Source: an uncultured Lachnospiraceae bacterium (GTDB taxonomy: Bacteria; Bacillota; Clostridia; Oscillospirales; CAG-272). From it: a DNA stretch of 64,000 nt. The stretch lies in assembly GCA_964628455.1 (NCBI GenBank), contig CAZVPD010000003.1, positions 2,046-66,045 of the forward strand. Direction: 5' to 3'. This document shows, piece after piece, positions 4,150-42,336 of this stretch; position 1 is the stretch's first letter, and every line of letters begins with the position of its first letter. The notes under the pieces were generated by a model. It was not told the DNA's origin. It did no database searches and saw only the letters and a program-made list of their open reading frames with translations. The position numbers were made by a program, and so were the translations under genes.

Positions 4150-5229
4150 ATGTACAAACCCGAATACAGCGACATATCCTATCTGAAATCCATACCCAAA
4201 AAACCGGATTTTGACGGCTTGCTGAAAATACTCCGCAAAGGCAAAGCGGACAGGGCGCGGCTGTTCGAATTTTTTCTGAATGAAACGCTTTACAATCAGT
4301 TTGCGGACGAATCCGATTACGGGGATATAGCCGATCCGTACCTGCGTTACTGCGTCCGGAACACCTCCGCTTACAGGAATGCGGGTTACGATTATATGGT
4401 CATCGGCGGACAGGGATTCGGCTTTCCCCGAAAAGAGAATCCTCACAGCGACCGCACTTATTCGCTGAATGAAGTGGTTACGATCACGGACCGCGAAAGC
4501 TTTGAAGCATATCGCTTTTCAGACCCTTCGGATGATTCTTTTTATAAAATATACGATGATATTCTGCCCTATATCCCCGACGGTATGCGGGCGGTGGGAC
4601 AGCAGCCGGGCGGGGTGCTTGAGAATGTCATGGCTTTGTGCGGCTATGACAGCCTCTGCCTGAATATGTACGATGATCCCGGACTTGTCCGCGATATTTT
4701 TGAAGCGGTGGGCGGCCGGCTTGCCGACTATACCCGCCGCGTCGTTTCGCATGAAAGCGTCGGCGCCATGATCATCAACGACGACTGGGGCTTTAACACG
4801 CAGACCATGATCAGTCATGCGGACATGCGCCTTTATGTTCTTCCCTATATTGCCGAAATGATCGGCGCGTGCCATGAGGCAGGCAAACCCGCGATCCTGC
4901 ACTCCTGCGGCAACTTCGGCGCCGGCAGGGACAGCCTTTATGAAGATGTTATCGCGATGGGACTGGACGCGAAGCATTCTTTTGAGGACGTCATCTGTCC
5001 GATCGAACAGGTTTACGAGACCTATAAAGGACGCCTTGCTTTAATGGGGGGAATCGACGTCAATTTTATCTGTACAAGCTCTCCGGAAGCGGTTTATAAC
5101 CGGTCGGCTGCGATGCTCGCGCGAAGCTTTGCTGACGGAGGCTACGCGCTCGGTACCGGAAATTCGGTGCCCTATTATGTGCCGTCCGAAGGATATGCCG
5201 CAATGATCGCCGCTGTGCTGATCGGATAA
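4150..5229 (+). CDS. uroporphyrinogen decarboxylase (URO-D) superfamily protein, MtaA-like
   Basis: 359 aa with URO-D-fold length and layout. Has an ILHSCGN block and a later FICTS. Paralog of 8534-9547 and 9665-10762. Confidence 0.7.
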   Translation: MYKPEYSDISYLKSIPKKPDFDGLLKILRKGKADRARLFEFFLNETLYNQFADESDYGDIADPYLRYCVRNTSAYRNAGYDYMVIGGQGFGFPRKENPHSDRTYSLNEVVTITDRESFEAYRFSDPSDDSFYKIYDDILPYIPDGMRAVGQQPGGVLENVMALCGYDSLCLNMYDDPGLVRDIFEAVGGRLADYTRRVVSHESVGAMIINDDWGFNTQTMISHADMRLYVLPYIAEMIGACHEAGKPAILHSCGNFGAGRDSLYEDVIAMGLDAKHSFEDVICPIEQVYETYKGRLALMGGIDVNFICTSSPEAVYNRSAAMLARSFADGGYALGTGNSVPYYVPSEGYAAMIAAVLIG

Positions 5230-5244
5230 AAAAAGGAGAACTGT

Positions 5245-6132
5245 ATGAAACAAATTCTTGACGCCGTCTTGCGTGAAAAACCCAAAAAACTGATTCTCGA
5301 CACCGATACCTATAACGAAGTGGACGACCAGTTCGCCGTGGCTTATGCCATGCTGTCGCCCGAACTCAGGCTGCTTTCGCTGAATGCCGCTCCCTTTCTA
5401 AACGACCGCTCGGTCTCGGCCGGGGACGGCATGGAAAAAAGCTTTGAGGAACTGAAGAGGATCACCGCCCTCACAAGACCGGGACACAGCATACCGATCT
5501 TCCGCGGTTCGCTCAGTTTCATGACCGAACGGGACAAACCGGTCGATTCACCAGCCGCGCGCAATATCATCGATACCGTGAAGAACCTTCCGGACGGCGA
5601 ACGGCTGTATATCGCCGTCATCGGAGCGGCGACCAACGTAGCCTCAGCGATTCTTGCCGCTCCCGAAATCATGGACCGCATCGTCATCGTATGGCTTGCG
5701 GGAAACTCGTATATGTCTCCCCATCCGCGCGAGTTCAATATGCACGGAGATCTCCCGGCCGCACAGGTGCTTTTCGACTGCGGCGCGCCGCTTCTGCAGA
5801 TACCGTGCGACGGTGTCTGCACCGAACTCGCCACCACTATTCCGGAACTCGATTTCTATCTCAAAGGAAAAAACGATCTCTGCGATTATCTTTGCGATAT
5901 CGTCCGGGGGTATACGCATGACGCTTACGCCTGGTCCAAGGTCATATGGGATGTCTCCGCCATAGCCTGCCTTATTCTTCCGGATTCCATGAGCCGGGTT
6001 ATCCTCCCCGCCCCGATGGTGCTGGACCGTTTTTATTCGTTCGACGCGGGGCGTCATCCGTATATCTATATCCGTAAACTTTACAGGGACGAAATTTTCC
6101 GGGATCTGTTCCGCAAGCTTGCCGACAAATAA
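5245..6132 (+). CDS. inosine-uridine preferring nucleoside hydrolase family protein (variant Asp motif)
   Basis: 295 aa, AGGAG RBS. The N-terminal LILDTDTYNEVDDQFAVAYAM resembles the IUNH DxDxxxDD fingerprint but with a longer spacer. Confidence 0.7.
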   Translation: MKQILDAVLREKPKKLILDTDTYNEVDDQFAVAYAMLSPELRLLSLNAAPFLNDRSVSAGDGMEKSFEELKRITALTRPGHSIPIFRGSLSFMTERDKPVDSPAARNIIDTVKNLPDGERLYIAVIGAATNVASAILAAPEIMDRIVIVWLAGNSYMSPHPREFNMHGDLPAAQVLFDCGAPLLQIPCDGVCTELATTIPELDFYLKGKNDLCDYLCDIVRGYTHDAYAWSKVIWDVSAIACLILPDSMSRVILPAPMVLDRFYSFDAGRHPYIYIRKLYRDEIFRDLFRKLADK

Positions 6133-6182
6133 CCCGCGGCGCTTCGGTTCCGTTTTAAATCATAGAATTTGCGGGGAATACT

Positions 6183-8537
6183 ATGCAGAACAAACTTACA
6201 ATGAGATATCCTTCGTCCTGGCAGGGTGACATGTGGCGCGAAGGCGCCCCCTGCGGGAACGGTCTTGTCGGAGCGCTGGTATACGGCGGTATTTATAAAG
6301 AGAACATCCTTCTGAATCACGCGTATTTATGGCGCGGCGGCCGGAATGAACCGCTGCCCGACGTCAGCGGAAAACTGCCTGAGATCAGAAGACTGCTCGA
6401 TGAAAACAATCCTTTCGATGCGGACGGGATACTGGCCGGCGCTCTGCGGGAACGCGGTTACGGCGGCGACACCTGCAATCCTCTTCCCCTTTGCGACATT
6501 CGGATCAACACGCCCGTAAAAGACGTCTTTTCGCATTACAGGCGCGAGATCGATATGGAAAAAGCCGAGGTGACCGTCAGCTGGACCGAAAAAGCGGTAC
6601 ATTTCACACGTTCCGTATTCGTTTCCCGCCTGAATCATCTGATATTCACCCGCTATGCCTGCGACAGGACCGGAGCTCTCGATACGGCGGTAACCGTTTG
6701 CGTCCACGACACGGAGACACTGGGCGCGGTCGTCATCGAAAACGCCGAAACCCGTGTCTCGGGAAATATGATCTGTTTCGCCGCCTATAATCAGTCGGTG
6801 TTTTACGGCGGTGATTACGGCGCGGTAAGCCGTGTTGTCACCGACGGAGAAACCGAGGCGGACGGCCCTTACCTGAAAATAAAAAAAGCGTCTGAAATAT
6901 TGATCGCAACAAAAGTATTTGCCGGAAGCGGACGGGAAAGGGAATTCGCGCAGGCCCGAGAGGATCTCTCCCGTGTTTTTGATTATAACGAAGAGTTGTC
7001 GGCGCATACTGCCCTGCACAAACCTCTCTTCCGTGGCGTAAACTTTGAAATATCGGAAACGCACACTTCAAACGAGGAACTTTTGCTGCAGGCGTTCGAG
7101 GATGAATGCCCGAACGAACTGACCGAAAAGCTGTATGCCTACGGCAGGTATCTGTTTGTCTGCTCCTCTTCGGATAAAGATACGCTGCCCTGTCATCTGG
7201 TCGGTTTATGGAACGGCACATACAACTGCTTCTGGGCGATCTATATGTACAACATCAATTTCGAAATGATCTACTGGCAGGCGCTCAGCGGGAATTTGCC
7301 CTCTTATCTGCGCCTTGCGCTCGATTATACGGAAAAATTTACCGATGACTTCAGGGAGAATGCGCGCAGGCTTTTCGGCTGCCGGGGCATCTACATCAAC
7401 TCCGTAAACACTCCGGAATCGGGCATTTCGAAATGCGGCGCTTCCCATATACTGAACTGGACCGGAGGAGCCGCCTGGTTTGCCCAGCATTTCTGGGACT
7501 ATTACCGCTATACGGAGGACACCGAATATTTAAAAAAGCACGCGCTTCCCTTTATGTATGAAGCCGCTCTGTTTTATGAGGACTTCGCCGTCCCGGGGGA
7601 AAACGGATATTATGTGCTGTACCCCTCGACCTCTCCGGAAAACTGCGCGCAGAATATAAAGGACATGTCCCCCTCCGGCCATGAAGCGCAGATTTCGGTG
7701 AACGCGACGCTCGAAACGGCGCTGATGAAGGAACTGCTGGTGAATTTGATCAGCGGCAGCATAATCACCGGCATGTATGCGGAAAAACGCGATAAATGGC
7801 GTGACATGCTGGCGCATATCGCCCCTTACCGGATAAACACCGACGGTGCCGTTAAGGAATGGCAGCATGATTTCTACGGAGAAAACTACAGGCACCGCCA
7901 CCAGAGCCATCTGTATCCGGTTTTTCCGGGCTGCGAGATCGCCGAAAAAGATGAGATCTATCCGGCATTCGTCCGGGCTGAAGAACTCAGAATGGAGCAC
8001 GGCCTTCAGGATCAGAGCAGCTGGTCCATGGTTTTCATGTCCTGCGTCATGGCCCGCATGCAGCGCGGCGAAGAGGCTTTAAAGGCCGTCGGTACGATCG
8101 CACGTACCTGCCTGATGAATAATTTCTTTACTGTTCACAACGACTGGCGCAGAATGGGACCTGCGGCATGCGATGATTTCAGAGTCGCGCCCTTTCAGAT
8201 AGACGGCAACACGGGAATACCCGCCGCGATCAACGAAATGCTGCTCCAGTCTCAGCATGATGAGATTTTTCTGCTTCCCGCTTTGCCGGGAAAATGGGCA
8301 CAGGGAAAAATCGAAGGACTTCTCGCGCGCGGCAACATCCTTTGCGATATTTACTGGAAGGACGGCAGCGCAAGGGCTGTTCTGACCCCCCGGGGAGGAG
8401 TCAGACACAAGACGGTCCGCCTCGGAAGCGGATATGTCTTTGCCGACGGAAGCACCCTGGCGGACCATACATTCAGCCTTCCATTGGAACTTGAATTTTT
8501 CGAAGCAAAAAAGGCAGACGGAAGGAGCGCTTTATGA
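6183..8537 (+). CDS. glycoside hydrolase family 95 (alpha-L-fucosidase/alpha-L-galactosidase type)
   Basis: 784 aa. The N-terminal WREGAPCGNGLVGALVYGGIYKENILLNHAYLWRGG matches the GH95 N-terminal domain pattern. Size and (alpha/alpha)6-type middle region are consistent. Confidence 0.8.
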   Translation: MQNKLTMRYPSSWQGDMWREGAPCGNGLVGALVYGGIYKENILLNHAYLWRGGRNEPLPDVSGKLPEIRRLLDENNPFDADGILAGALRERGYGGDTCNPLPLCDIRINTPVKDVFSHYRREIDMEKAEVTVSWTEKAVHFTRSVFVSRLNHLIFTRYACDRTGALDTAVTVCVHDTETLGAVVIENAETRVSGNMICFAAYNQSVFYGGDYGAVSRVVTDGETEADGPYLKIKKASEILIATKVFAGSGREREFAQAREDLSRVFDYNEELSAHTALHKPLFRGVNFEISETHTSNEELLLQAFEDECPNELTEKLYAYGRYLFVCSSSDKDTLPCHLVGLWNGTYNCFWAIYMYNINFEMIYWQALSGNLPSYLRLALDYTEKFTDDFRENARRLFGCRGIYINSVNTPESGISKCGASHILNWTGGAAWFAQHFWDYYRYTEDTEYLKKHALPFMYEAALFYEDFAVPGENGYYVLYPSTSPENCAQNIKDMSPSGHEAQISVNATLETALMKELLVNLISGSIITGMYAEKRDKWRDMLAHIAPYRINTDGAVKEWQHDFYGENYRHRHQSHLYPVFPGCEIAEKDEIYPAFVRAEELRMEHGLQDQSSWSMVFMSCVMARMQRGEEALKAVGTIARTCLMNNFFTVHNDWRRMGPAACDDFRVAPFQIDGNTGIPAAINEMLLQSQHDEIFLLPALPGKWAQGKIEGLLARGNILCDIYWKDGSARAVLTPRGGVRHKTVRLGSGYVFADGSTLADHTFSLPLELEFFEAKKADGRSAL

Positions 8538-9547
8538 CCAAAAGAGACTATGTGCTTTCGGCAGTAAAGCATAAGAGCGCCGATAAAGTCCCGTATTGCA
8601 TCCGCCTGACCGGTGAAGCGTATAATCTATACGGGGAAAGACTGCTCAAAGACTATTACAGTAAGGAAGTTTCGGACGATCTGAAAGAAGGCAGGATCAG
8701 TTTCACACAGGCAGTGGAACTTTCGATGGGAAATTTCATGATAGAACCGGGATTTCCGTGGTGGAACTGGGATTACGCGAATACGGATCCCGTCTATTCG
8801 AGACCGGAAGAAGAACCCCCGGTGATGCCCGCGGTCGTCCGTTATGACACCGAAGAGAACTTCCGTTCCTTTTATTCGAAAGCCGAATTTTTCGCCGATA
8901 AATATCAGGTTTATACGACGGCTCTGATATGGGGCAGTCACTGGGAAAAAGCCTATTTTACAAGGGGGATCGAAAATTTCCTCGCGGACCTTGCGGGCTT
9001 TCCGGACTTCGCGCAGAAGCTTCTCGATTATATCGTCCATACAAACATGCAGATCCTGCCGAATATCGCAACCTGCCCTCATCTTGACGGGATACTGCTC
9101 GGAAGCGACTGGGGCACGCAGAACGACCTGATCATGTCTCCGGCAACCTGGAAAACCATGATCAGAAAAGGTGAAAAAATACAGTATGACCTGATAAAAT
9201 CCTTTAACAAGGACGTGATGGTTCACTCCTGCGGCAACGTCACCAAACTCATCGGAGAACTGGTGCTTCTGGGCGTCGATATCCTGAATCCCGTACAGCC
9301 CGAATGTATGGATCTGAAGGAACTGAAGCAAAAATACGGTGACAGGCTTACTTTCTGGGGAGGTATCAGCACGCAGAAAACACTGCCATACGGCACACCC
9401 GAAGAAGTGAAAAAAGAAACGGAACAGACGATACGGCTGATGAGCGAAAACGGCGGCTATATCACCTGCGCCTCGCAGGAGATTCAATGCGACGTGCCCT
9501 ATGAAAATTTGACCGCGATGATAAACACAGCCAGGTCTTTTGCCTGA
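8534..9547 (+). CDS. URO-D superfamily protein, MtaA-like
   Basis: 337 aa. The start overlaps the GH95 stop (ATGA). AGGAG RBS. MVHSCGN block and a later ITCASQEIQC. Confidence 0.7.
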   Translation: MTKRDYVLSAVKHKSADKVPYCIRLTGEAYNLYGERLLKDYYSKEVSDDLKEGRISFTQAVELSMGNFMIEPGFPWWNWDYANTDPVYSRPEEEPPVMPAVVRYDTEENFRSFYSKAEFFADKYQVYTTALIWGSHWEKAYFTRGIENFLADLAGFPDFAQKLLDYIVHTNMQILPNIATCPHLDGILLGSDWGTQNDLIMSPATWKTMIRKGEKIQYDLIKSFNKDVMVHSCGNVTKLIGELVLLGVDILNPVQPECMDLKELKQKYGDRLTFWGGISTQKTLPYGTPEEVKKETEQTIRLMSENGGYITCASQEIQCDVPYENLTAMINTARSFA

Positions 9548-9664
9548 AACCGCGGGGTCCAAACGGATAAAACAAAAAAAGCAGGCGATTCTCCGGAATT
9601 TATCTGCCGGAATGTCTGCTTTTTCATATTTTATGTCTTTACGGATAACGATAAGGCGCCGCCG

Positions 9665-10762
9665 TTAATTATAGCTGCCCAGAGCCAGTCCTTTTTCGAT
9701 AAAATATTTGTATGTTTCGTAACGGACCGTTTTCGGAATAGAATGGTCGGAGTGCAGGACATAAGCGTGTCCCTGTTTGACCACGGGTATTTTAGCCTCC
9801 AGTTCCGCGTCGATGATCGCCCTGTCATTCGAATAAAGGCAGCGGACGTCTATCCCCCCGATGAGAGCGATTTTATCCCCGTGGTTTTTAAATATGCGCA
9901 GCAGGTCCATGCCGGCTTTGACTTCGATAACCTGAAGCCCGTCGATCCCCGCGCGGATCATGCCGGGGAGCAGCGGCTCCACAAAACCGCAGGAGTGCAT
10001 GACCACGGGAAGTCCGATGCCGTGCGCATAGTCACAGGTGAGTTTATGTGCGGGATATATAAACTCGTCATACATTTCGGGAGACATGAACGGAGCGTTT
10101 TTAAAGCCCATATCCTCATAATACCAGACTCCGTCGGGTTTCCCCTCTTCCTCAAAAAGGATTTTCTGAAGACTTACCGTCAGTTCCGCGAAGGTGTTCG
10201 TCATATCGGACACCCATTCGGGGTCGTCCAGCATACCCATCAGCATCCCGACATGACCGCATACCGGATGCATGCATTCAAACACATTGACACCGCTCCA
10301 GAAAAAGAAGCGTTCTTTGGATGCCGCGTATGCTTTGGCACCCCTGTAAGCCTCAAAGTTGATGCGCCGACGGTAGTTTGCCGGATCGAGAAGCCGGGGT
10401 TTTATGAGTTCATCCCATTTTTCACGGCAGTCTATATCAAAAGCGATGTGTTCAGGGGTGGAATCGTGTTTTTTATGACGGCGGAGGGTGGCATAGTTGC
10501 CGTCCTTCGCGGTTACCGTATCTTCATCTTCGGCAACGACAAACGGAACAAAATCAAGGTCCGCGCACAGATTGAAAGGCCAGCAGGTTGTCAGATCATA
10601 ATTAAAATGGTCTTCGAAACCTTCGCCCGGTTTTATTTCGGAGGTGGTGTCCTCGCCCGAAGTCCACGCGCGGTGGGTATCGCCCCAAAAATGTTCATAC
10701 AGGCCGATCCTGTCGGTAGGCTTATGCCGAAGTATGCACGATATGCGTTCTTTGCCTGTCAT
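9665..10762 (-). CDS. URO-D superfamily protein, MtaA-like
   Basis: 399-aa ORF trimmed to ATG 10762 (MTGKERISCILRHKPTDRIG; AAGGA upstream). The longer form would overlap the upstream capA-like gene. VMHSCGF block. Confidence 0.7.
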   Translation of the reverse strand: MTGKERISCILRHKPTDRIGLYEHFWGDTHRAWTSGEDTTSEIKPGEGFEDHFNYDLTTCWPFNLCADLDFVPFVVAEDEDTVTAKDGNYATLRRHKKHDSTPEHIAFDIDCREKWDELIKPRLLDPANYRRRINFEAYRGAKAYAASKERFFFWSGVNVFECMHPVCGHVGMLMGMLDDPEWVSDMTNTFAELTVSLQKILFEEEGKPDGVWYYEDMGFKNAPFMSPEMYDEFIYPAHKLTCDYAHGIGLPVVMHSCGFVEPLLPGMIRAGIDGLQVIEVKAGMDLLRIFKNHGDKIALIGGIDVRCLYSNDRAIIDAELEAKIPVVKQGHAYVLHSDHSIPKTVRYETYKYFIEKGLALGSYN

Positions 10763-12429: not shown

Positions 12430-13584
12430 TTACCGGATCAGCATTTCTTTAACCTCCCCGGCGTTTTTTATCAGGGGGATTTCCGGACAGCGGCAGAATT
12501 TCTGATGAACATCGTTTAAAACAAGATGCTCAATCACAACATTCCGGTCAATCTGTATCGTTGGCGCCTCGGTTTCCGCTTCTTCATTCCTGTAAACACC
12601 GGAAATCGAAACATTTCCGCATCTGATGCCTTCCGCAAACCATATGACGGGATTGTATTTTATCGATTTTTCATGTGTTCCCTTCCCGTAAGGGATATCC
12701 ACGCTGTCGATAAAGCGTCTGTCGGCGTCAGGCTGCTGCGGATGCTTCGAACAGAATACATTCTCAATTGAAATGCCGTCAAACAGGGACGGAGCTCCCG
12801 GAACGATGTTGTGATGCGTGAAAGAAATTCCGTAAAAACGATAGGTGCCGAAGATATTGCGGACAGAAACGTTTTTCATGGGGCTGCCGCAGGAAAGCAG
12901 CCGGACCGCTGTATACCCGTTATCCGCATAAAGGCTGTCGACTGAAATATTTTCTATGATTCCCTGCTTTACATTGAGGTTGTTTCCGTCGTCATAAGCA
13001 TCGTCACAGTTCAGAGCTACCAGGTCGTCGTTTGTCGCTCCTTTGATATTACGGATAAAACCGTTTCGGGCCCGCCCCTGTATATGAACCCCGTCCATAT
13101 TCGGACGCAGCATATTATAATCGAAGGTGATGTTTTCAACCGTGAATCTGTCGGCGCCTGTAATCTGCATCGCATAACTTTCCGGATCCTTCACGGTTAA
13201 ATTTCTGATATTCAGATCCTCGATGTTCTCAAAGCGCATGACAGGCCCCATGAAATACGGCTTGCCCGGATGGTTTTTCCCGCGTTTTTGCGCCCTGTTG
13301 TTGCCATTCCATACACCGCCCTCCACCGTAATGCGCCGGTTCGTTTTTTCTTTTCCGCAGCATTCGTTTTTCAGCATAAAGCAGCAGGCTCCGTCGGCAA
13401 GAAAGATCTCTGCTCCGAACGACAGGACCAGCGCGGTGTCGTCCCCGATAACAAGCGAATCTGAAATACGGTATTTCCCTTCGGGTATCGCTACCTCTCC
13501 CCGGCGGTCCAGTCCGGCCTGTATTCCCGCGGTATCGTCATGCTCTCCGTCTCCGTAAAGCTTCATATCGTTATTGATCGTCAT
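12430..13584 (-). CDS. right-handed beta-helix glycosidase, GH28-like / pectate-lyase superfamily
   Basis: 447-aa ORF trimmed to ATG 13584 (AGGAG 6 nt upstream; MTINNDMKLYGDG). Contains DDTAGIQAGLD...IPEGKYRISDSLVI and NDDLVALNCDD. The upstream 63 codons are AT-rich intergenic read-through. Confidence 0.65.
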   Translation of the reverse strand: MTINNDMKLYGDGEHDDTAGIQAGLDRRGEVAIPEGKYRISDSLVIGDDTALVLSFGAEIFLADGACCFMLKNECCGKEKTNRRITVEGGVWNGNNRAQKRGKNHPGKPYFMGPVMRFENIEDLNIRNLTVKDPESYAMQITGADRFTVENITFDYNMLRPNMDGVHIQGRARNGFIRNIKGATNDDLVALNCDDAYDDGNNLNVKQGIIENISVDSLYADNGYTAVRLLSCGSPMKNVSVRNIFGTYRFYGISFTHHNIVPGAPSLFDGISIENVFCSKHPQQPDADRRFIDSVDIPYGKGTHEKSIKYNPVIWFAEGIRCGNVSISGVYRNEEAETEAPTIQIDRNVVIEHLVLNDVHQKFCRCPEIPLIKNAGEVKEMLIR

Positions 13585-13719
13585 ACACAGCTCCTGTGGC
13601 TGCATTGACCGCGGCAGCCGGATACGCGGCCTGTAAAAGATTTTAAGGCATAAATAACCGGTTTCCGCCTCATGATTATTAAAATAAAAATAAAACAAAA
13701 ACGTAAAGAAAGGCAAAAA

Positions 13720-14742
13720 ATGAAAATCAAACTGGGAATAGTCGGCCTCGGAAGAGCCGGAAGAGGTATGCATCTCGATGAACTGGAGGGCTCACGCGAT
13801 CTTTTTGAAATTTCGGCTGTATGTGACTCGATAAAAGAACGCGCCGACGAGGTTGCGGCCAGATACGGCTGCCGGGCTTATTATAATATCACGGACTTTC
13901 TTGCGGATGACGGTTTTGAAATGGCCGATATCGCGACCCGCTCGTGCGACCACTGCCGTCATGCTGTCATGAGCATGGAAGCCGGAAAACATGTTCTGCT
14001 GGAAAAACCGATGGCGGCCGACTTAAGCGAAGCCCTGCTGATTTTCGAAACAAGCGCGAAACTCGGAAGGAAGCTGTATATCCGGCACAACCGGCGCTGG
14101 GAGGGACCGTTTAATCAGGCTCTGGCGATCATTAATTCCGGAGTCATCGGCGATGTATTCGAAGTCAGGCTTACGCGCAGCGGGTTTGAAACACGCAACG
14201 ACTGGCAGACATTAAGAAAATACGGGGGAGGGCAGCTGCTCAACTGGGGACCGCACATCATCGACCAGGCGCTCGTGTTCGGCGAAGGCTATACCGATTT
14301 ATTTTATAATATAAAGCAGATCAACGCCAGCGGAGACTGCGAAGATCATATAAAAACCGTCTTTACCGGAAAAAACAAAAGGATTATCGATCTGGAGATA
14401 AGCGGAGGGTGCGCGCTCAGTCTGCCGCTTTATACGGCATACGGTTCGAGGGGTTCGTTCGAAATGTATGACGACCGCACCGAACTGAAATATGTGAACC
14501 GTGACTTCAGCATCATCAAGTTTGAGGCGAATGAGGGGACACCCGGCGAATATTTCGCCAACAGCGGTGATATATCCTGGACAACCGAAACGATTCCGAC
14601 CGAACACGTGAGGCTCGATCAGGTTTGGAAAGCTGTCTATGAAGATTATAACGGAATAAAACCCTACCGCATCACAAAGGAACAGGCGCTTGCGGTCATG
14701 GAAGTGATCGCAAAGGTAAAACAGGGACGCGTTGCATTATAA
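13720..14742 (+). CDS. Gfo/Idh/MocA family oxidoreductase
   Basis: ORF trimmed to ATG 13720. MKIKLGIVGLGRAGRGMH Rossmann GxGxxG. LLEKPMAADL motif. Confidence 0.85.
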   Translation: MKIKLGIVGLGRAGRGMHLDELEGSRDLFEISAVCDSIKERADEVAARYGCRAYYNITDFLADDGFEMADIATRSCDHCRHAVMSMEAGKHVLLEKPMAADLSEALLIFETSAKLGRKLYIRHNRRWEGPFNQALAIINSGVIGDVFEVRLTRSGFETRNDWQTLRKYGGGQLLNWGPHIIDQALVFGEGYTDLFYNIKQINASGDCEDHIKTVFTGKNKRIIDLEISGGCALSLPLYTAYGSRGSFEMYDDRTELKYVNRDFSIIKFEANEGTPGEYFANSGDISWTTETIPTEHVRLDQVWKAVYEDYNGIKPYRITKEQALAVMEVIAKVKQGRVAL

Positions 14743-14782
14743 ATTACACGTTATATATTATTAATGAGAAGGAATTATTTCT

Positions 14783-15526
14783 ATGATCAGAACAGGTGTG
14801 GCCGACTACGGCATGAATTGTTATTACGGCGGATTTTATGACTATTCCGCGCGTATGGACGCGCTCGCAAAGATCGGATACGACGGCATCGAAAGGATGT
14901 CTCCGCGGAATTACACGGATGCCTGTCAAAAGCTGATCGTTCTCGCCGAACGCAGAATGAGTTTTTCTACGGTTGAAGCCGAAGACACCGAACAATCGAT
15001 CAAACTGACGGCAGCATTCGGGAAAAAATACATCTGGGCGGATAAATCTCCCTTCGTGTCCTCCTTTGACGATTACTGCCGAACAGTGAGTTATCTCGAA
15101 GAGGCCTGCGCCCGATACGGCATTTGCCCTGCGGTCCACAACCATCTGGGCTCGCTTGTCGAAAGTCAGGAGCAGCTGGAAGAATTTCTTGCACGCTGTC
15201 CGGGAACCGGCCTTATCCTTGATACAGCGCATCTCGCGGTTGCCGGCGGAGATATCCTGTATATCCTTGCGAAATATTTCGAGCGGGTAAAAGCCGTTCA
15301 TATAAAAGAATGGCATATAAACGATCCGTTGACGAAAAACATACGGGAAGGACGATTCTGCGGTTTGCGTCAGGGCAATTATGATATAGACAATGAAGGC
15401 TTCGTAAAGGAATTGCTCAGACGCGGTTACGGCGAATGGATATTTATCGAACAGGATACGCATCTGCGAGAACCGCTTGAGGATCTGAAGGAAAGCCGTC
15501 AGATCCTGCGAAGCTGGGGTATATGA
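14783..15526 (+). CDS. sugar phosphate isomerase/epimerase (xylose isomerase-like TIM barrel)
   Basis: 247 aa. Contains GYDGIERMS, ILDTAHLAVAGGD and VHIKEW, as in AP-endonuclease-2/xylose-isomerase-like barrels. Lies 40 nt after the oxidoreductase. Confidence 0.8.
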   Translation: MIRTGVADYGMNCYYGGFYDYSARMDALAKIGYDGIERMSPRNYTDACQKLIVLAERRMSFSTVEAEDTEQSIKLTAAFGKKYIWADKSPFVSSFDDYCRTVSYLEEACARYGICPAVHNHLGSLVESQEQLEEFLARCPGTGLILDTAHLAVAGGDILYILAKYFERVKAVHIKEWHINDPLTKNIREGRFCGLRQGNYDIDNEGFVKELLRRGYGEWIFIEQDTHLREPLEDLKESRQILRSWGI

Positions 15527-15591
15527 GCTGTTCCCCGGACTGAGACGATAAAATCCCGAATCTGACAGGATGGGATACCTAAACAGAATCA

Positions 15592-15636
15592 TTCTCCGGT
15601 TTCTTCCATAAAACCGGAGAATGACTTTCTTTTTTA
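15592..15636. terminator. rho-independent terminator (strong for + strand, weaker for - strand)
   Basis: TTCTCCGGTTT-cttccat-AAACCGGAGAA 11-bp stem, followed by a T-rich run (ctttctttttt) on the + strand. Confidence 0.65.
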
Positions 15637-15640: not shown

Positions 15641-16654
15641 TTATCTGCCCCTGGAGGTTTCTTCGACGGCAACGGCAACGGCAACGGTAGCGCCGACCAT
15701 CGGATTGTTTCCCATACCGATCAGCCCCATCATTTCGACATGAGCGGGAACTGAGGACGATCCGGCAAACTGAGCGTCGCCGTGCATCCTGCCCATCGAG
15801 TCGGTAAGACCGTAGGACGCGGGTCCGGCAGCCATATTGTCGGGATGAAGCGTGCGTCCGGTTCCGCCTCCCGAGGCTACGGAAAAGTATTTCTTGCCGG
15901 ATTCATAGGACCATTTCTTATAGGTTCCGGCGACCAGGTGCTGGAAACGGGTCGGATTCGTGGAGTTTCCGGTTATGGAGACATCCACATCTTCGGCTTT
16001 CATAATGGCAACGCCCTCAAGCACATCGTTTGCGCCGTAAACGCGGACTTTGCTTTTTTCACCGGTCGAATAAGCTTTCTCGCGGACAATGTTCAGGGTG
16101 TCGGTATAAAAGTCATATTCGGTTTCAACATAGGTGAATCCGTTGATGCGCGAAATGATAAATGCGGCGTCTTTGCCCAGCCCGTTGAGTATGACGCGAA
16201 GGGGTGCGGTTCTGACTTTATTCGCGCTGCGCGCAATCCCTATGGCGCCCTCAGCCGCTGCAAAGGATTCGTGTCCCGCGAGGAAACAGAAGCATTTTGT
16301 CTCTTCTCGAAGCAGCATCGCCGCCAGATTTCCGTGACCGATGCCGACTTTTCGGCTCTCCGCCACCGATCCGGGAATACAGAAAGCCTGAAGACCGATC
16401 CCTATGGCTTCGGCCGCGTCCGCAGCGTTCCGGATCCCTTTTTTCAGCGCGACGGCACAGCCCAGCGTATAAGCCCACCCTGCATTCTCAAATGCGATAG
16501 GCTGCACGCTTTTAACTATTTCGTCAACATGGATGCCGGCTTCCTGACACATGGTCCGCGCGGCCTCAAGATCGGCGATACCGTATTCGGCAAGGCATTT
16601 TTCGATGCCCGCCATTCTTCTCGCTTTACCTTCGAATTGTACGTTGTTCGACAT
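15641..16654 (-). CDS. GGGtGRT family protein (function unknown)
   Basis: 337 aa, AGGAGG RBS. Contains the family-defining SVASGGGTGRTLHPD. Lies 20 nt downstream of the IscU-like gene. Confidence 0.8.
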   Translation of the reverse strand: MSNNVQFEGKARRMAGIEKCLAEYGIADLEAARTMCQEAGIHVDEIVKSVQPIAFENAGWAYTLGCAVALKKGIRNAADAAEAIGIGLQAFCIPGSVAESRKVGIGHGNLAAMLLREETKCFCFLAGHESFAAAEGAIGIARSANKVRTAPLRVILNGLGKDAAFIISRINGFTYVETEYDFYTDTLNIVREKAYSTGEKSKVRVYGANDVLEGVAIMKAEDVDVSITGNSTNPTRFQHLVAGTYKKWSYESGKKYFSVASGGGTGRTLHPDNMAAGPASYGLTDSMGRMHGDAQFAGSSSVPAHVEMMGLIGMGNNPMVGATVAVAVAVEETSRGR

Positions 16655-16674
16655 AAAATACGGATCCTCCTTTC

Positions 16675-17388
16675 TTATTGTTTGCGCGGGTCGATGTATC
16701 TGACCGCGTCGGCATATCTGCCGTATGTTTTGATATTGTTCTTATATGCAGCGGCGGGTTCGGTTCCGGATTTGATGTCGTCCATCATCTTGCCGAGGTG
16801 TATGAATTTATATCCGATTACTTCATCGTTTTCGTCAAGACCGGTTTCGAGAATATAGCCTTCCGCAATTTCCAGGTAGCGGACGCCTTTGGCCAGCGTA
16901 GCGAAAATAGTGCCGACCTGAGAGCGCAGGCCTTTGCCGAGGTCCTCAAGCGAAGCACCGATGGGTAGTCCTCCTTCGGAGAACGCCGTCTGCGTGCGTC
17001 CGTATACCAGCTGTTTGAAAATTTCGCGCATGGCAACGTTTATGGCATCGCAAACCAGGTCGGTGTTCAGAGCTTCGAGGATTGTTTTTCCCTGCAGAAT
17101 TTCTCCCGCCATAGCTGCCGAGTGCGTCATACCGGAACAGCCCAAAGTTTCAACAAGCGCCTCGTGAATAATGCCTTCTTTTACATTGAGCGTAAGTTTA
17201 CAGCAGCCCTGCTGCGGCGCGCACCAGCCGATGCCGTGAGAAAGGCCGGATATGTCTTTGATTTCATAGGGTTTTACCCATCTGCCCTCTTCGGGTATGG
17301 GAGCAGGTCCGTGATGCGGACCCTTGGCGACGGTGCACATGCTCTCGACTTCGTGCGACAGAGCATATGCACTTTCGTTTTTTGACAT
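16675..17388 (-). CDS. IscU/NifU N-terminal-like iron-sulfur scaffold-like protein with extensions
   Basis: 237 aa. Three-Cys layout resembles IscU: GWCAPQQGCCKLTLNV, ETLGCSGMTHSAAMAGE..GKTILEAL, DLVCDAINVAMREI. It also has N- and C-terminal extensions. Confidence 0.65.
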   Translation of the reverse strand: MSKNESAYALSHEVESMCTVAKGPHHGPAPIPEEGRWVKPYEIKDISGLSHGIGWCAPQQGCCKLTLNVKEGIIHEALVETLGCSGMTHSAAMAGEILQGKTILEALNTDLVCDAINVAMREIFKQLVYGRTQTAFSEGGLPIGASLEDLGKGLRSQVGTIFATLAKGVRYLEIAEGYILETGLDENDEVIGYKFIHLGKMMDDIKSGTEPAAAYKNNIKTYGRYADAVRYIDPRKQ

Positions 17389-27625: not shown

Positions 27626-28393
27626 TTATACCGCCACAACCGTCACACCCGCCCCGCGAAGATCCGAAAGATGGTCGGGCGAAGCGCTCGAATTTGTCAC
27701 GATACAATCGGCACAGGTTACGGGAGCTATGTCGGCAAACGCGACGCGTCCGATTTTCGAGTAGTCGGCGGCAATAATAACCGAAGCGGACTGCGCTATC
27801 ATGCGCCTCGATATTTCGGTTTCATTGGCATAATACAGGGTCAGACCGCATTCGCGGTCGATTCCGTCCACCGAAAGCACCAGTTTGTCCGCATGATAGC
27901 AGGACAGCTGACGAAGTGCGTCGTCTCCGTAAGTGAAAAGGAATTTGGGATTGATGAGACCTCCCAGAAGCATGACATTAAAACTTTTATAGGTGGAGGC
28001 TTCCGCTGCGATGGGAAGAGAATTTGTAACCAGAGTCAGATTATGCCTGTTGCGGAGGGCACGCAGCACATAGGTCATGGTGGTTCCCGAATTAAGCATG
28101 ATACTGTCGTTGTCGTGTATCATGGAGGCGACCCTTTCGGCGATAATCTTTTTTTCGGTTTCGTTTGCCGAAAGACGCTCTTTCAGGTCCATCTCATGGT
28201 ATAGCTTGGACGAACTGACGGCACCGCCGTGCACCCTTGACAGCAGTCCCTGAAGGGACAGAAATTCCAGATCTCCCCTCACCGTCACCTCGGAAATACC
28301 GAAGAGGGCACTGAGACTGCTCACCCTGACTTCTCCTTTTTCCCCGAGAAGTTCCAGTATTTTTTCCCGCCGCTGGTCCGCGTTATATTCCAT
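27626..28393 (-). CDS. DeoR/GlpR family transcriptional regulator
   Basis: ORF trimmed to ATG 28393. MEYNADQRREKILELLGEKGEVRVSSLSALFGISEVTVRGDLEFL winged HTH plus a DeoR C-terminal effector domain. Confidence 0.85.
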   Translation of the reverse strand: MEYNADQRREKILELLGEKGEVRVSSLSALFGISEVTVRGDLEFLSLQGLLSRVHGGAVSSSKLYHEMDLKERLSANETEKKIIAERVASMIHDNDSIMLNSGTTMTYVLRALRNRHNLTLVTNSLPIAAEASTYKSFNVMLLGGLINPKFLFTYGDDALRQLSCYHADKLVLSVDGIDRECGLTLYYANETEISRRMIAQSASVIIAADYSKIGRVAFADIAPVTCADCIVTNSSASPDHLSDLRGAGVTVVAV

Positions 28394-28458
28394 CACCCAA
28401 TACCCCCGTGTTTTCAGAACGGATGCACTTAGCATAGCATAATCGCCTTATAATTCTG

Positions 28459-28487
28459 TTGACATTTTGTTAATTTTATGCTATAAT
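28459..28487 (+). promoter_or_regulatory. consensus sigma-A type promoter of the nine-gene operon
   Basis: TTGACA (28459-28464), 17-nt spacer, TATAAT (28482-28487). Divergent from the DeoR gene. Confidence 0.6.
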
Positions 28488-28569
28488 ATTATACGTAAAT
28501 TATCCGAAACCTATACGAAGGCAATATGAAAGAATCCATAAAAAAGATCAGATGTAAAGGGGATATGTT

Positions 28570-30090
28570 ATGTCACAGCTTCTAATCGGATGGGCTCAGC
28601 GCGATGTTTCCACAGAAAAACCGGTTAACATACCGGGACAGTTTCATATGCGGATCTCGCAGGGAATTATGGACCCGCTTTTCGTAAGCGCGCTTGCCGT
28701 CGATGACGGCAGGGACTCGGTCATTTTTTTATCCGCGGACCTTGTTGTCATCCGCTGCTTCCTGCTGGATGAAATCCGGGCGAAAGTAGCCGCGAAAAAT
28801 CCCGCGATCAAAACCGAAAAAATACTTATGAATGCCACGCATGCTCACACCGGAGCAAGCCATTATTCGGATACCGGATGGGTAGACAGCAAATCGAACG
28901 GCAGGTCCGGCGGCGCAATGCCCGATGTGGGTATTAAAATAGCTTCGGGTGATGAATACCGTGACTTTCTGTCAGGGCAGGCGGCGGACGCGGTCTGCGA
29001 AGCCTGGGAAAAAAGGGTTCCCGGCGGTATTGCGTACGGGTACGGCTATGCCGTTGTTTCACACAGCCGCCGCGTGCTTTACTTTGACGACACGTCAAAG
29101 CGTCCCGGAAGCATGGCAACCGGCTACATGGTGAACGGACACGGGGTCATGTACGGAAATACAAACGACGAAAATTTTTCGGGATATGAAGCCGGGTCGG
29201 ACCATTTTATCAATATATTATATACTTTCGATGCCGGCGGAAAACTGACGGGAGCCGTCATCAACGTTCCCAGCCCTTCGCAGAATTCGGAACACGAGCA
29301 TCGTCTGTCGGCCGACTTCTGGCATGACGTCCGCACCGCCATACGTGCCCGGCACGGAAACATCTTTATCCTCCCCCAATGCGCGGCGGGCGGGGATCTT
29401 TCCCCGCGTATTCTGCACTATAAAAAAGCGCAGGACAGAAGATTCCGTTTAAAATACGGAATGAATGAAACCGAACTGGCGGCAAGAAAAGACATCGCGG
29501 AGCGAATTTCCGCCGCTTTCGACGAGGTTTTATCCTGGGCAAAAAACGATATAAAAACCGACGTGAAGGTGAATCACCGGACGGAAACAGTCCTGCTGTC
29601 CAAGCGCCCCATATCGGACGAGGAACTGGCTTTCTGTACGGACGCTTTAAAGAAGCTGAAAGAAGTTCCGTTTAAAACAGAAGGGGCTTCACCCACGGAA
29701 CTGCTGACTTTTAACTCCTCGCTCGAGGCTCAGCGAAACAGATTCGAACGGATTATCCAGCGATACAACGAGTTTGATAAGGAGCCGAAGCTTCCGATGG
29801 AACTTCATGTGCTTCATATCGGCGATATCGCCTTTGCATCCAACCGTTTTGAACTGTATATGGACTTCATGCACCGCATACAGGCGCGTTCTCCTTTCGA
29901 GCAGACTTTTATTGTGCAGCTTGCAGGCGTTCCCGGACCCGACGGCGGATCCTATCTCGCCACCGAACGCGGTGCGGAAAACAAAGGATACAGCGCCTGT
30001 CTTTTCTGCAATGTTGTGTCACCGGAGGGCGGTCAGGAACTTGTTGAGGAAACACTTAAGCTTCTTAATGAAATAAAAAAAATATCCTGA
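28570..30090 (+). CDS. hypothetical protein with neutral/alkaline ceramidase N-terminal-like domain
   Basis: 506 aa. The N-terminal pattern IGWAQRDVS...DPLFVSALAVDDGRDSVIFLSADLVVI and NATHAHTGASHY resembles the Ceramidase_alk family. No signal peptide. Confidence 0.5.
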   Translation: MSQLLIGWAQRDVSTEKPVNIPGQFHMRISQGIMDPLFVSALAVDDGRDSVIFLSADLVVIRCFLLDEIRAKVAAKNPAIKTEKILMNATHAHTGASHYSDTGWVDSKSNGRSGGAMPDVGIKIASGDEYRDFLSGQAADAVCEAWEKRVPGGIAYGYGYAVVSHSRRVLYFDDTSKRPGSMATGYMVNGHGVMYGNTNDENFSGYEAGSDHFINILYTFDAGGKLTGAVINVPSPSQNSEHEHRLSADFWHDVRTAIRARHGNIFILPQCAAGGDLSPRILHYKKAQDRRFRLKYGMNETELAARKDIAERISAAFDEVLSWAKNDIKTDVKVNHRTETVLLSKRPISDEELAFCTDALKKLKEVPFKTEGASPTELLTFNSSLEAQRNRFERIIQRYNEFDKEPKLPMELHVLHIGDIAFASNRFELYMDFMHRIQARSPFEQTFIVQLAGVPGPDGGSYLATERGAENKGYSACLFCNVVSPEGGQELVEETLKLLNEIKKIS

Positions 30091-30141
30091 TTATCATCCG
30101 GCCTGAAACAACACCCGGACTCAGCAAGGAGAAGAACCGAC

Positions 30142-31497
30142 ATGATAAAATCACCTTCCGTCGCTTTTGCCGGATTCGGCGAAATCAATACGCCGCGCGA
30201 TATTCTCGTCCGAAAGTGCTCCAAAGCCGCGCAAAACCTTCTGGATCTTGGACTTGAACTGCGCACCGTATACCCGATCACCGACGATCCCGATGAAAAA
30301 GATATAAAAAATGCAGTTGCGGAATTTAAAACTTTTGATTTTGACGTGCTTATACTGTGTATTGCCGGATGGATCCCCTCTCACGCCGTTATAAAAGTTG
30401 CCGAAGAATTCAGGCATCTGCCGATGGTGCTGTGGGGGCTTTGCGGCTGGGAAGAAGACGGACGCCTGATAACAACGGCGGACCAGGCGGGAACGACGGC
30501 GCTGCGCAAAACAATGTCCGATATCGGTTATAGTTTCCGTTTTGTTTACGAGATCGCCGGACTTCCCTCCCGTGCTCCCCGTGTCGCCGATTACTGTGCC
30601 GCGGCTTCCGCCGCAAAAACGCTTCGCCGTACCAAAGCGGGGATGATGGGCTACCGTGATATGAATCTCTACGGCACATTGTATGACGGTCCATCGCTGA
30701 AACGCACGACAGGCGTAGAAATCGAAACTTTTGAGATGCTTGAAGTTGAGCAGCGATATCGGTCGGTTTCGGAAGAAGAGATCAGCGATATTATAAACGG
30801 TCATATTAAAAAATGGCGATTTCTGAAGGAAGCCGACCCTTCTTCTCTCCGCAAAGCCGCGGGATATTATATCGCCGTCCGCGATATCGCACGCATGCGC
30901 GGCTACAAGGCGGTTTCGCTGAAGGATGTCGACGGAATGAAAAAGCTGCTCGGATATCCGCCGGCCCCTGTTTTCATGCTGCTTGCGGATATCGACGGCA
31001 TCTGCGTCGTACCCGAAAATGATTCCCTGGGCTGCGTCACACAGCTGATTATAAAAGAACTGATCGGCCAGTGCGGCTGCTATCTGGAATTTTACGAGTT
31101 CTTCGCGGACAGGGTGCTTGCCGGAGTTCCCGACTTTATCCCCGCCGAGGTTACGGAAGGGGAAACAACCGTGATCCCCGCGGCTTTCGGCGAACTGTCG
31201 CAGGGTATCCTCAATGTATCGGAACTGAAGGAAGGCGAGCTGACCATGTGCCGTCTTTCCTATACAGGCGGTAAATATTCGATGCACATGCTTCTCTGCA
31301 GAGGCGTGCGCCCGCGCAGATGGGAAGAAGCCGGCTGGACGCAGCCGGCACCCCGCCTGCCGGCTCTTGAAATTCTTCTAGACGACGTCGGGGCATTTGC
31401 AGAGAAAGTCACGTCGCAGCATTATTTCATATGCTACGGGGACAACACGCGCCGTATCACGGATCTGTGCTCCATACTCGGAATCGATGTCTGCTGA
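30142..31497 (+). CDS. L-fucose/L-arabinose isomerase family-like protein
   Basis: 451 aa. N-terminal VAFAGFGEINTPRD..., an ILCIAGWIPSHAV region and C-terminal HYFICYGDNTRRITDLCSILGIDV resemble FucI/AraA-related (COG2407-type) proteins. Confidence 0.55.
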   Translation: MIKSPSVAFAGFGEINTPRDILVRKCSKAAQNLLDLGLELRTVYPITDDPDEKDIKNAVAEFKTFDFDVLILCIAGWIPSHAVIKVAEEFRHLPMVLWGLCGWEEDGRLITTADQAGTTALRKTMSDIGYSFRFVYEIAGLPSRAPRVADYCAAASAAKTLRRTKAGMMGYRDMNLYGTLYDGPSLKRTTGVEIETFEMLEVEQRYRSVSEEEISDIINGHIKKWRFLKEADPSSLRKAAGYYIAVRDIARMRGYKAVSLKDVDGMKKLLGYPPAPVFMLLADIDGICVVPENDSLGCVTQLIIKELIGQCGCYLEFYEFFADRVLAGVPDFIPAEVTEGETTVIPAAFGELSQGILNVSELKEGELTMCRLSYTGGKYSMHMLLCRGVRPRRWEEAGWTQPAPRLPALEILLDDVGAFAEKVTSQHYFICYGDNTRRITDLCSILGIDVC

Positions 31498-31530
31498 ATA
31501 AAAGAAATCCACCCGGACCGGAGGAAAATC

Positions 31531-34300: not shown

Positions 34301-34316
34301 GCATTAAGGAGCATGT

Positions 34317-35042: not shown

Positions 35043-35081
35043 AGGATATGCTTTTAATTTACGGATAAAGGAGTAGGCAGA

Positions 35082-42157: not shown

Positions 42158-42307
42158 TACAATCCCTCCTCTATCATCTTATATAAATATATAATAGCAT
42201 ATTCCTGACGGACTGTCAATAATCAATACAAACTCGCGGACCATTGCCAAATAATTCTGAGGACGGCAGAATCTCCGTTATAATGATTCCGCCTTATAAA
42301 ATTGTCC

Positions 42308-42336
42308 TTGACATAAACAGAACTTTTATATATAAT
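42308..42336 (+). promoter_or_regulatory. consensus sigma-A type promoter
   Basis: TTGACA (42308-42313), 17-nt spacer, TATAAT (42331-42336), 63 nt upstream of ATG 42400. Confidence 0.6.

Follow-up and report, generated by a model that had tools for sequence, protein, structure and literature searches.

In a 64,000-nucleotide stretch of DNA from an uncultured Lachnospiraceae bacterium (contig CAZVPD010000003.1; the whole stretch is termed the window), we have investigated two adjacent genes encoding a Gfo/Idh/MocA oxidoreductase (Gfo1, the product of 13720-14742) and a 247-residue xylose-isomerase-like TIM barrel (TIM1, the product of 14783-15526). Both open reading frames (ORFs) are present where an original prediction, made from the sequence alone, had placed them, and both products pass the corresponding Pfam thresholds. 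Gfo1 and TIM1 form a two-gene operon with a strong terminator, and represent a conserved, functionally linked unit, which occurs in sugar-degrading bacteria from many phyla. The explanation which we tentatively consider the best is that the pair would act as a cytoplasmic oxidise-then-eliminate unit on a carbohydrate-derived substrate, the elimination step being non-hydrolytic. Deglycosylation by the pair, as advanced in the original prediction, is a plausible and reasonable hypothesis; that true deglycosylation is the form which this chemistry takes is somewhat doubtful. The observation is confirmed and its earlier interpretation partly supported.

Conservation of the pair and the active site of TIM1

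Scanning of one genome per species (185,579 species representatives) yielded 246 loci with a TIM1 relative. Pair counts refer to the best 80 of these 246 loci, in which TIM1 identity is 41-59% and Gfo1 orthologues were sought by tblastn. The 80 loci span Acutalibacteraceae, Oscillospiraceae, other Clostridia, Paenibacillus, Planctomycetota, Verrucomicrobiota, Lentisphaerota, Chloroflexota, Armatimonadota and Spirochaetes. A Gfo1 orthologue (37-53% identity, >230 bits) adjoins TIM1 on the same strand at 48 of the 80 loci, in at least eight phyla, with two further loci being cut by contig ends. Paired loci are always co-oriented, the ends of the blast matches lie no more than ~110 nt apart in all but one, and at several Clostridia loci (e.g. 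L027, L030 and L048) the called ORFs abut or overlap at the TIM/Gfo junction. The TIM gene precedes the Gfo gene in 45 loci and follows it in 3, the latter order being that of the window. With orthologues of both genes side by side in 48 of 80 genomes, and in no fewer than eight phyla, Gfo1 and TIM1 are functionally linked. They constitute a conserved unit and not a chance association, in agreement with the original prediction, which had treated them as a module.

TIM1 passes the AP_endonuc_2 model (PF01261) with 66.2 bits (cut-off 31.1). When 1.84 billion cluster representatives were searched, roughly a dozen full-length 50%-identity clusters, which make up the TIM1 clade proper, scored >225 bits; the full-length sequences that come next score ~155 bits and proteins of IolE length ~100 bits. 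Judged from these sequences, TIM1 belongs to a compact, well-separated clade related to IolE. TIM1 identity between Firmicutes and Planctomycetota or Chloroflexota is 44-59%, and the occurrence of so compact a clade across at least eight phyla suggests strong constraint together with horizontal transfer. A literature search found no paper on the TIM1/Gfo1 clade, and in JGI automatic annotation some homologues are called 'inosose dehydratase' or 'scyllo-inositol 2-dehydrogenase (NADP+)'. A role in DNA repair, suggested by the PF01261 name (Nfo/AP endonuclease), was considered and rejected, as there is no nfo-type match and pairing with a sugar dehydrogenase is conserved.

A profile of 22 TIM1 homologues (A1), searched against PDB sequences, matches IolE (3cny, E=8e-25) and a Brucella 'IolE protein' (9zmu, 9e-22) best, followed by 4kw2 (8e-11), the isomerase Art22 (1e-8), AtHYD (1e-7), the lyase AL1 (1.7e-4), IolI (3.7e-4) and AtOGE (5e-4, 22.9 bits). 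The profile gives no match at E<=1 to the alpha chains of C-glycoside deglycosidases (CGDs) in the PDB, and no sequence match there to YcjR or ketose 3-epimerases. The AlphaFold2 model of TIM1 (pLDDT 93.3) has a (beta/alpha)8 layout, and with this model Foldseek ranks IolE first (TM 0.79), the top 50 matches being without exception xylose-isomerase-like barrels.

The residues of TIM1 that are invariant in A1, H119-N-H121, D147, H150, H173-x-K175 and E223-x-D225-T-H227, map to the C-terminal ends of strands b5-b8 in the AlphaFold2 model. Alignment of A1 with AtOGE pairs H119, H121, D147, H173 and E223 with H132, H134, D163, H189 and E233, respectively; the AtOGE sequence came from a supplement read by machine, with a few character-recognition errors, and the motif alignment reproduces the published numbering of H132 and H134. 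In AtOGE, Mn2+ is bound by H132, D163, H189 and, weakly, E233, and H134 is the proposed base, the H134A enzyme being inactive and H189A nearly so. The same five invariant TIM1 residues follow the H178/H180/D211/H237/E272 pattern of the AL1/BT1 3-keto-glucoside lyases, which also use H180 and W214 and in which E272 is the base. Similarly, AVHNH, LDTAH, VHIK and IEQD of TIM1 align with AYHHH, YDTGH, VHFK and VEAEQD of 3cny. At the HxH position 4kw2 carries HNH, whereas the isomerase Art22 carries E-N-Y. On these alignments, TIM1 carries the residue constellation seen in enzymes which enolise a ketone and then release its beta substituent; the protein is IolE-like in His150 and AtOGE-like in its short, lidless barrel.

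Gfo1 passes three Pfam models, GFO_IDH_MocA (PF01408, 79.1 bits versus a cut-off of 24), GFO_IDH_MocA_C3 (PF22725, 53.2 versus 27) and GFO_IDH_MocA_C (PF02894, 30.3 versus 22.9), and displays the motifs GLGRAG, EKP, RHNRR, DWQT and GGGQLLNWGPHIID. A profile of 21 Gfo1 orthologues (A3), in which GLGRAG and EKP are invariant, was searched against PDB sequences. The top solved match is the uncharacterised structural-genomics protein 3e18 (E=2e-45), with Bacillus subtilis YvaA second (1e-40, full length), followed by DgpA2 (1e-36, full length), DgpA (1e-32) and YhhX (2.5e-32); matches to DgpA1, DgpA2 and DgpA together span 1e-19 to 1e-36 and IolG-type enzymes lie at 1e-22 to 1e-24. By sequence, Gfo1 is placed in the YvaA/YhhX/DgpA clade, and the kinship to the DgpA-type oxidase that had been proposed holds. 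YvaA is presumably IolW, the NADP-dependent scyllo-inositol dehydrogenase. The old gene name is not given in PMC3878828. The clade would then hold an inositol enzyme as well as C- and O-glycoside 3-oxidases, so that clade membership does not by itself discriminate between the two. The end of beta2 carries Cys35-Asp36, which is invariant among the Gfo1 orthologues, and YvaA is gapped there in the profile alignment. Because Asp36 is invariant, the cofactor of Gfo1 is, by the usual Rossmann-fold rule, probably NAD+ and not NADP+. Neither Gfo1 nor TIM1 has a signal peptide on direct reading of the sequence.

Neither protein approaches an NCBIfam equivalog cut-off. Gfo1 scores 74 bits against 355 for IolG (TIGR04380) and 48.6 against 540 for inositol dehydrogenase (NF052679), aligning in both cases through its N-terminal 150-160 residues. 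It scores 52 against 650 for levoglucosan dehydrogenase LGDH (NF052479) and 30.6 against 750 and 31.6 against 650 for the glycoside 3-dehydrogenases BT_2158 and BT_2159, and is nowhere near the cut-offs for UDP-GlcNAc 3-dehydrogenase and xylose dehydrogenase. TIM1 scores 65.4 bits against a cut-off of 290 for IolE (TIGR04379), with residues 94-243 aligning to profile positions 127-287.

Proposed reaction and competing interpretations

Oxidation followed by elimination would proceed in three steps. Because of its family membership, Gfo1 would use NAD+ to oxidise a ring secondary alcohol of a pyranoside or related polyol to the ketone. TIM1 would then bind the keto-sugar via Mn2+ or Co2+ held by H119, D147, H173 and E223, H121 and/or E223 would take the proton alpha to the ketone, and the group on the beta carbon would leave, a step which is assigned to TIM1 because its catalytic residues align with those of the eliminases. 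By the example of AtOGE and AL1/BT1, the leaving group would most attractively be the aglycone or sugar of a glycoside, or alternatively water or an ether or ester substituent. In a third, speculative step, suggested by analogy with DgpA and the AL/BT system, the enone or keto-sugar may be hydrated and re-reduced, possibly by Gfo1, rendering the cycle redox-neutral. The better support for oxidation and elimination is the cross-phylum conservation of the orthologous pair combined with the eliminase-type active site. The genomic contexts described below point to decorated plant or host glycans as the source of the substrate, not inositol.

A number of observations weigh against this interpretation. 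In sequence, TIM1 is much nearer to IolE than to AtHYD, AL1 or AtOGE, and invariant His150 (D-T-x-H, as in IolE) replaces the substrate-stacking Trp of the lyases; the sugar-contacting Trp three residues past the Asp ligand (W214 in AL1, D-V-A-W in AtOGE) does not occur in TIM1. At the level of the modelled fold, the search cannot separate dehydratases, lyases, hydratases and epimerases, as IolE, Art22, the AsbF dehydratase, the AtHYD hydratase, AL1, UlaE and ketose epimerases all score between E=1e-13 and 1e-9. The partnership is frequent and strong, not obligatory, since ~17 loci whose flanking DNA extends to 8 kb or more hold TIM1 without a Gfo1 orthologue; of four Gfo1 orthologues picked irrespective of TIM1, two adjoin TIM1 and two do not. 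No hydratase gene (AtHYD or DUF1080) adjoins the pair in the window. Finally, genomic contexts are heterogeneous, many pairs standing alone with only an AraC regulator.

Among the alternatives, a redox-neutral interconversion of a sugar or cyclitol, in which Gfo1 oxidises, TIM1 epimerises or isomerises and Gfo1 re-reduces, is unlikely but survives best. Escherichia coli YcjS/YcjR is such a redox-neutral pair, YcjR being a 3-keto-glucoside 4-epimerase. Two genes would suffice to feed a rare sugar into central metabolism in this manner, and the unit is often a self-contained two-gene operon accompanied by an AraC regulator and no downstream catabolic genes. The IolG/IolI enzymes of B. subtilis interconvert myo- and D-chiro-inositol (PMC3878828). 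Many epimerases share the xylose-isomerase-like fold and have similar Foldseek scores, among them UlaE, D-tagatose and D-allulose 3-epimerases and YcjR (6wn6). At the sequence level, however, YcjR and ketose 3-epimerases are not matched and IolI only at E=3.7e-4, and the first-ligand pattern HxH is that of the eliminases IolE, AtOGE and AL1/BT1, Art22, the one isomerase aligned, having E-N-Y. Epimerases generally use Glu at this first-ligand position.

Less likely again is a branch of inositol or cyclitol metabolism, in which Gfo1 would be an IolW/IolX-like dehydrogenase and TIM1 a short IolE-type inosose dehydratase. Among solved structures, TIM1 matches IolE best in both sequence and fold, all four IolE motifs (HxH, DTxH, HxK and E) are retained in TIM1, and some homologues bear the inositol-enzyme names assigned by JGI. 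YvaA, whose identity with IolW we presume, is the second-best full-length match of the Gfo1 profile. Since IolE is nearest to TIM1 and YvaA ranks above DgpA2 for Gfo1, closeness to solved relatives does not favour glycosides over cyclitols, and the preference for redox-assisted deglycosylation over inositol use fares unevenly: the eliminase-type site and the lack of an iol context support it, whereas the nearest relatives do not. Placement by hidden Markov models, part of the check originally suggested, divides similarly, with both proteins far below the inositol equivalog cut-offs (TIGR04379, 65 of 290 bits; TIGR04380, 74 of 355) and IolE being the nearest characterised relative of the barrel. 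Membership of both proteins in inositol clades, together with conversion of an inositol but of no glycoside, had been named as the outcome that would speak against deglycosylation; the closeness to IolE and YvaA touches on this, yet neither protein reaches the curated cut-offs. Against a cyclitol branch, the IolE alignment is limited to the C-terminal 150 residues of a barrel ~50 residues shorter than IolE, and Asp36, invariant in Gfo1 orthologues and gapped in YvaA, speaks against NADP+. In agreement with the earlier claim that other iol genes are missing, IolB, C, D, J and A were found neither in the scanned window ORFs (all but 11, mostly housekeeping-looking, ORFs) nor among the 25 most frequent families in a census of 127 immediate neighbours at 38 other loci. 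The neighbours are instead glycoside hydrolases, esterases and oligosaccharide-type ABC systems.

It is very improbable that Gfo1 and TIM1 are adjacent and mechanistically uncoupled, Gfo/Idh/MocA genes simply being abundant: the 64-kb window does hold six such genes and approximately one third of TIM1 loci lack a Gfo1 orthologue, but it is one orthologous Gfo clade (37-53% identity, >230 bits) that adjoins TIM1 in 48 of 80 loci across phyla, always co-oriented and, one locus excepted, with match ends within ~110 nt. A deglycosidase of flavonoid C-glycosides of the DgpA plus DgpB/DgpC (CarA/B/C) type, as envisaged in the original prediction, is effectively excluded: Gfo1 matches DgpA1, DgpA2 and DgpA and TIM1 keeps the catalytic His two residues past the first metal ligand, but there is no beta-subunit ORF between 13585 and 15640 or beside the pair in the related loci mapped, CGD alpha chains are not matched in the PDB at E<=1, and TIM1 has no lid domain (247 versus ~350 residues) and His, not Glu, as first ligand. 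In CGDs the beta-sandwich subunit is encoded side by side with the barrel and the active site lies at the subunit interface (PMC8563793).

The operon, its neighbours and the other modules of the window

The features of the operon and its surroundings are collected in Table 1. Sequence reading and the terminator scan agree with the intergenic gap, terminator and AT-rich divergent spacer reported in the original prediction. The terminator stem occupies 15589-15624 and is followed by CTTTCTTTTTT, closing the two-gene operon. Both divergent promoters presumably lie in the 13585-13719 spacer, in which a scan found no sigma-70 consensus site. A GAAAGG ribosome-binding site precedes the Gfo1 ATG at 13720. 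An in-frame upstream ATG at 13672 would extend Gfo1 by MIIKIKIKQKRKERQK, a Lys/Ile-rich low-complexity stretch (13672-13719) which is part of the AT-rich divergent promoter region, and public gene calls are split on the start, giving 356 residues in L001 and 340 in L090.

Table 1. Coordinates of the Gfo1-TIM1 operon and of associated features in the window
Feature	Position	Strand	Basis
Gfo1, cytoplasmic Gfo/Idh/MocA oxidoreductase, 340 aa	13720-14742	+	Pfam, NCBIfam and PDB searches, alignment A3
Intergenic gap inside operon, 40 nt, with GAAGGA ribosome-binding site ~10 nt before TIM1 ATG	14743-14782	+	Sequence read
TIM1, xylose-isomerase-like TIM barrel, 247 aa	14783-15526	+	Pfam, alignment A1, PDB searches, AlphaFold2, Foldseek
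Intrinsic terminator between convergent genes, 14-pair stem, 8-nt loop, T-rich tail	15589-15634	+	Terminator scan, sequence read
Divergent AT-rich spacer, 135 bp, Gfo1 to GH28-like gene	13585-13719	.	Sequence read, promoter scan
GH28-like right-handed beta-helix, 384 aa, no signal peptide, NMDG and TNDD motifs	12430-13584	-	PF00295, 40 bits, partial coverage
PGA_cap (CapA-like) protein, N-terminal membrane or signal segment	10827-12218	-	Pfam
URO-D-like protein, H-S-C-G motif	4150-5229	+	Pfam
URO-D-like protein, H-S-C-G motif	8534-9547	+	Pfam
URO-D-like protein, H-S-C-G motif	9665-10762	-	Pfam
Nucleoside-hydrolase-like protein	5245-6132	+	Pfam
GH95	6183-8537	+	Pfam

The GH28-like gene is a lineage-specific neighbour outside the conserved unit, being found beside the pair in the close relatives L001, L002, L090 and L091 (near-identical contigs) and in none of the 80 loci; the argument that had been drawn from glycan-type neighbours at this module consequently fails. 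With window proteins as probes in the 80 loci, the GH28-like and nucleoside-hydrolase-like proteins were never conserved and GH95, URO-D and PGA_cap were sporadic. The region 4150-10762 is a possible glycan cluster associated with the pair. PGA_cap occurs near the pair in 7 of the 80 loci and may be associated with it. In the census of 127 immediate neighbours, AraC regulators are commonest (10), followed by PGA_cap (6), CE15-like glucuronyl esterase (6), URO-D-like proteins (4), GH42 (4), ABC permeases (3), GH95 (2) and GH2 (2). Individual loci also hold GH38, GDSL esterases, a heparinase-like protein, CBM/SLH proteins and ABC sugar transporters.

In the Paenibacillus operon, TIM and Gfo follow genes for an AraC/Cache regulator, two permeases and a large solute-binding protein and precede a second Gfo gene; neither the four upstream genes nor the single downstream one encodes a glycoside hydrolase. 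Paenibacillus tarimensis is among the carriers of the pair. In several Clostridia, TIM, Gfo, a CE15-like esterase and PGA_cap are encoded in a single operon preceded by a divergent AraC gene. A CE15-like (glucuronyl-esterase-like) alpha/beta hydrolase shares the operon of the pair at L022:278-4487, L023:3397-7436 and L030:8001-10866, and the isolate Bianquea renquensis (strain NSJ-32 carries the pair) is among the Clostridia with this arrangement. The L022 and L023 operons add a cytoplasmic PGA_cap/CapA-like protein of metallophosphoesterase fold, and a divergent AraC regulator lies upstream of the operon in L023 and L030. A second, divergent barrel of the xylose isomerase (XI) type accompanies the pair in some loci; PDB searches gave no informative relatives for these.

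URO-D-like H-S-C-G proteins, which also keep a DDxG motif, are wedged between, overlap or are fused to the ends of the pair in distant phyla (L072:8668-9708, L078:5902-6924, L092:6756-8916 and L096:3306-7008). These motifs are reminiscent of the zinc motif that MtaA-type methyltransferases carry. Near the URO-D-like genes, no gene for a corrinoid protein was seen. The URO-D-like proteins may be a third partner of the module, acting for example on O-methyl sugars. At L096:1877-8053, a Gfo1 orthologue without TIM1 overlaps a URO-D-like gene and stands beside GH4 and an enolase-superfamily (MR_MLE) protein. GH4 is an NAD-dependent redox glycosidase, and this locus is a further hint of a role for the Gfo1 clade in sugar chemistry without hydrolysis.

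The original prediction had taken recurrence of the dehydrogenase-barrel module in three copies as an argument for deglycosylation. Both Pfam families do recur together at 42283-44593 (module 2) and 55685-58841 (module 3), but the similarity is at the superfamily level only. Identity between Gfo1 and the five further Gfo/Idh/MocA proteins of the window is 23-31%. By BLASTP, TIM1 has no significant match to the barrel of module 2 (TIM2) and is 22.5% identical to that of module 3 (TIM3), and the first metal-ligand motifs are H-N-H, E-M-H and K-A-H in TIM1, TIM2 and TIM3, respectively. The nearest solved relative of TIM2 (322 residues) is SCO6571 (2zds, E=6e-20), followed by the 2-hydroxy-3-keto-glucal hydratase AtHYD (4e-10), this AtHYD-like barrel lying 28 kb from the Gfo1-TIM1 pair; those of TIM3 are 3tva and AsbF. 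Judged by these sequence comparisons, the three modules belong to different subfamilies, and the argument from three copies does not stand. Their recurrence shows a genome rich in both superfamilies, not amplification of one module.

The TIM2 gene is divergent from a solute-binding lipoprotein gene (40691-42157), with a GH5-like gene (38668-40620) just beyond. The module 3 run (55685-63811) comprises an XI-type barrel, a pair of Gfo/Idh/MocA paralogues sharing 64% identity, a sulfatase (58889-60280) and a fifth Gfo gene, together with an AraC/cupin regulator and a solute-binding protein of lipoprotein-like type, and looks like a sulfated-glycan locus using redox enzymes. Convergent on the Gfo1-TIM1 operon (15641-17388, minus strand) are genes for a GGGtGRT-family protein (PF14057, 634 bits) and a NifU-like 237-residue protein, which are ~75% identical in L048 and L064 and far more conserved than their neighbours. 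A DeoR-regulated cluster at 27626-35582 encodes GH3, SIS-domain, triosephosphate-isomerase-family and UPF0047 proteins together with two proteins weakly matching Pfam (ceramidase-like and L-fucose-isomerase-C-like), and may specify an unusual sugar-phosphate pathway. The gene at 45586-47775 (minus strand) encodes a 729-residue protein in which a GT4 glycosyltransferase is fused to a polysaccharide pyruvyl transferase domain.

Significance and comparison with known systems

Oxidation-then-elimination cleavage of glycosides has been recognised recently in Agrobacterium, Bacteroides/Alistipes and C-glycoside-degrading gut bacteria. The TIM1/Gfo1 pair represents a distinct, very tightly conserved clade with an eliminase-type metal site, of which no member has been described. 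Should the pair cleave glycosides or take decorations off sugars, this chemistry would reach the cytoplasm of glycan degraders of the Oscillospirales, Paenibacillus and the PVC group, and the automatic names 'inosose dehydratase' and 'scyllo-inositol dehydrogenase' would be corrected. In a broader version, which we regard as rather improbable, the pair would provide the core of a hitherto unrecognised, hydrolase-independent cytoplasmic route in which oxidation and beta-elimination strip glycosidic or ether (e.g. O-methyl) substituents from decorated sugars of plant or host origin. URO-D-like H-S-C-G proteins, CE15-like esterases and cytoplasmic PGA_cap proteins would often accompany this route, which would have spread horizontally across at least eight phyla of bacteria. 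Should the unit prove to be a cyclitol or epimerase module, it would be ordinary. The system is of a known kind, a worthwhile target for biochemistry that would not surprise specialists.

Of the known systems, IolE (3cny, 9zmu; TIGR04379) is the best match to TIM1 in sequence and fold and shares its HxH, DTxH, HxK and E motifs. IolE is a beta-eliminating dehydratase, acting beside a ketone made by a Gfo/Idh/MocA dehydrogenase, which is the chemistry proposed here. It differs in that identity to TIM1 is ~20%, TIM1 is ~50 residues shorter and no iol genes form the context of the pair. AtOGE (8bvk) and AL1/BT1 (8tcd, 8tcr) share the constellation H(b5)-x-H, D(b6), H(b7), E(b8) with TIM1 residue for residue and act after a Gfo-type or other 3-dehydrogenase; AtOGE, with 259 residues and an open, lidless site, also approaches TIM1 in size. 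In contrast, their overall similarity to TIM1 is marginal (E=5e-4 and 1.7e-4), below sequence-level family membership, the secretion signals of AL1-3 predict a periplasmic location whereas TIM1 is cytoplasmic, and the Gfo partner of TIM1 is present without an adjacent hydratase partner (AtHYD or DUF1080).

The CGD systems (DgpA with DgpB/DgpC, PuCGD, DfgA/B and CarB/CarC) resemble the pair in the dehydrogenase clade and in their oxidise-then-eliminate logic, but their alpha subunit is ~350 residues long with a lid domain and E-x-H, compared with the 247 residues and H-N-H of TIM1, and has no detectable similarity to it. The closest solved relatives of Gfo1 are YvaA, YhhX, YdgJ and 3e18 (PRK11579-type), which match over the full length (E=2e-45 to 2.5e-32) and have the GxHIIDQ and EKP motifs in common with Gfo1. 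Gfo1 falls below the cut-off of the PRK11579-type subfamily (94 versus 330 bits), and YvaA is without the Asp36 position. We know of none among YvaA, YhhX, YdgJ and 3e18 that works with a TIM barrel partner. YcjS/YcjR and IolG/IolI are, like Gfo1-TIM1, pairs in which a Gfo dehydrogenase is combined with a xylose-isomerase-like barrel, the barrel substrate being a keto-sugar or inosose. The resemblance of YcjR and IolI to TIM1 is at the level of the fold (6wn6 at Foldseek rank 35; IolI E=3.7e-4), YcjR presumably has Glu as first ligand, with Glu ligands acting as bases, and both enzymes epimerise or isomerise, whereas TIM1 would eliminate.

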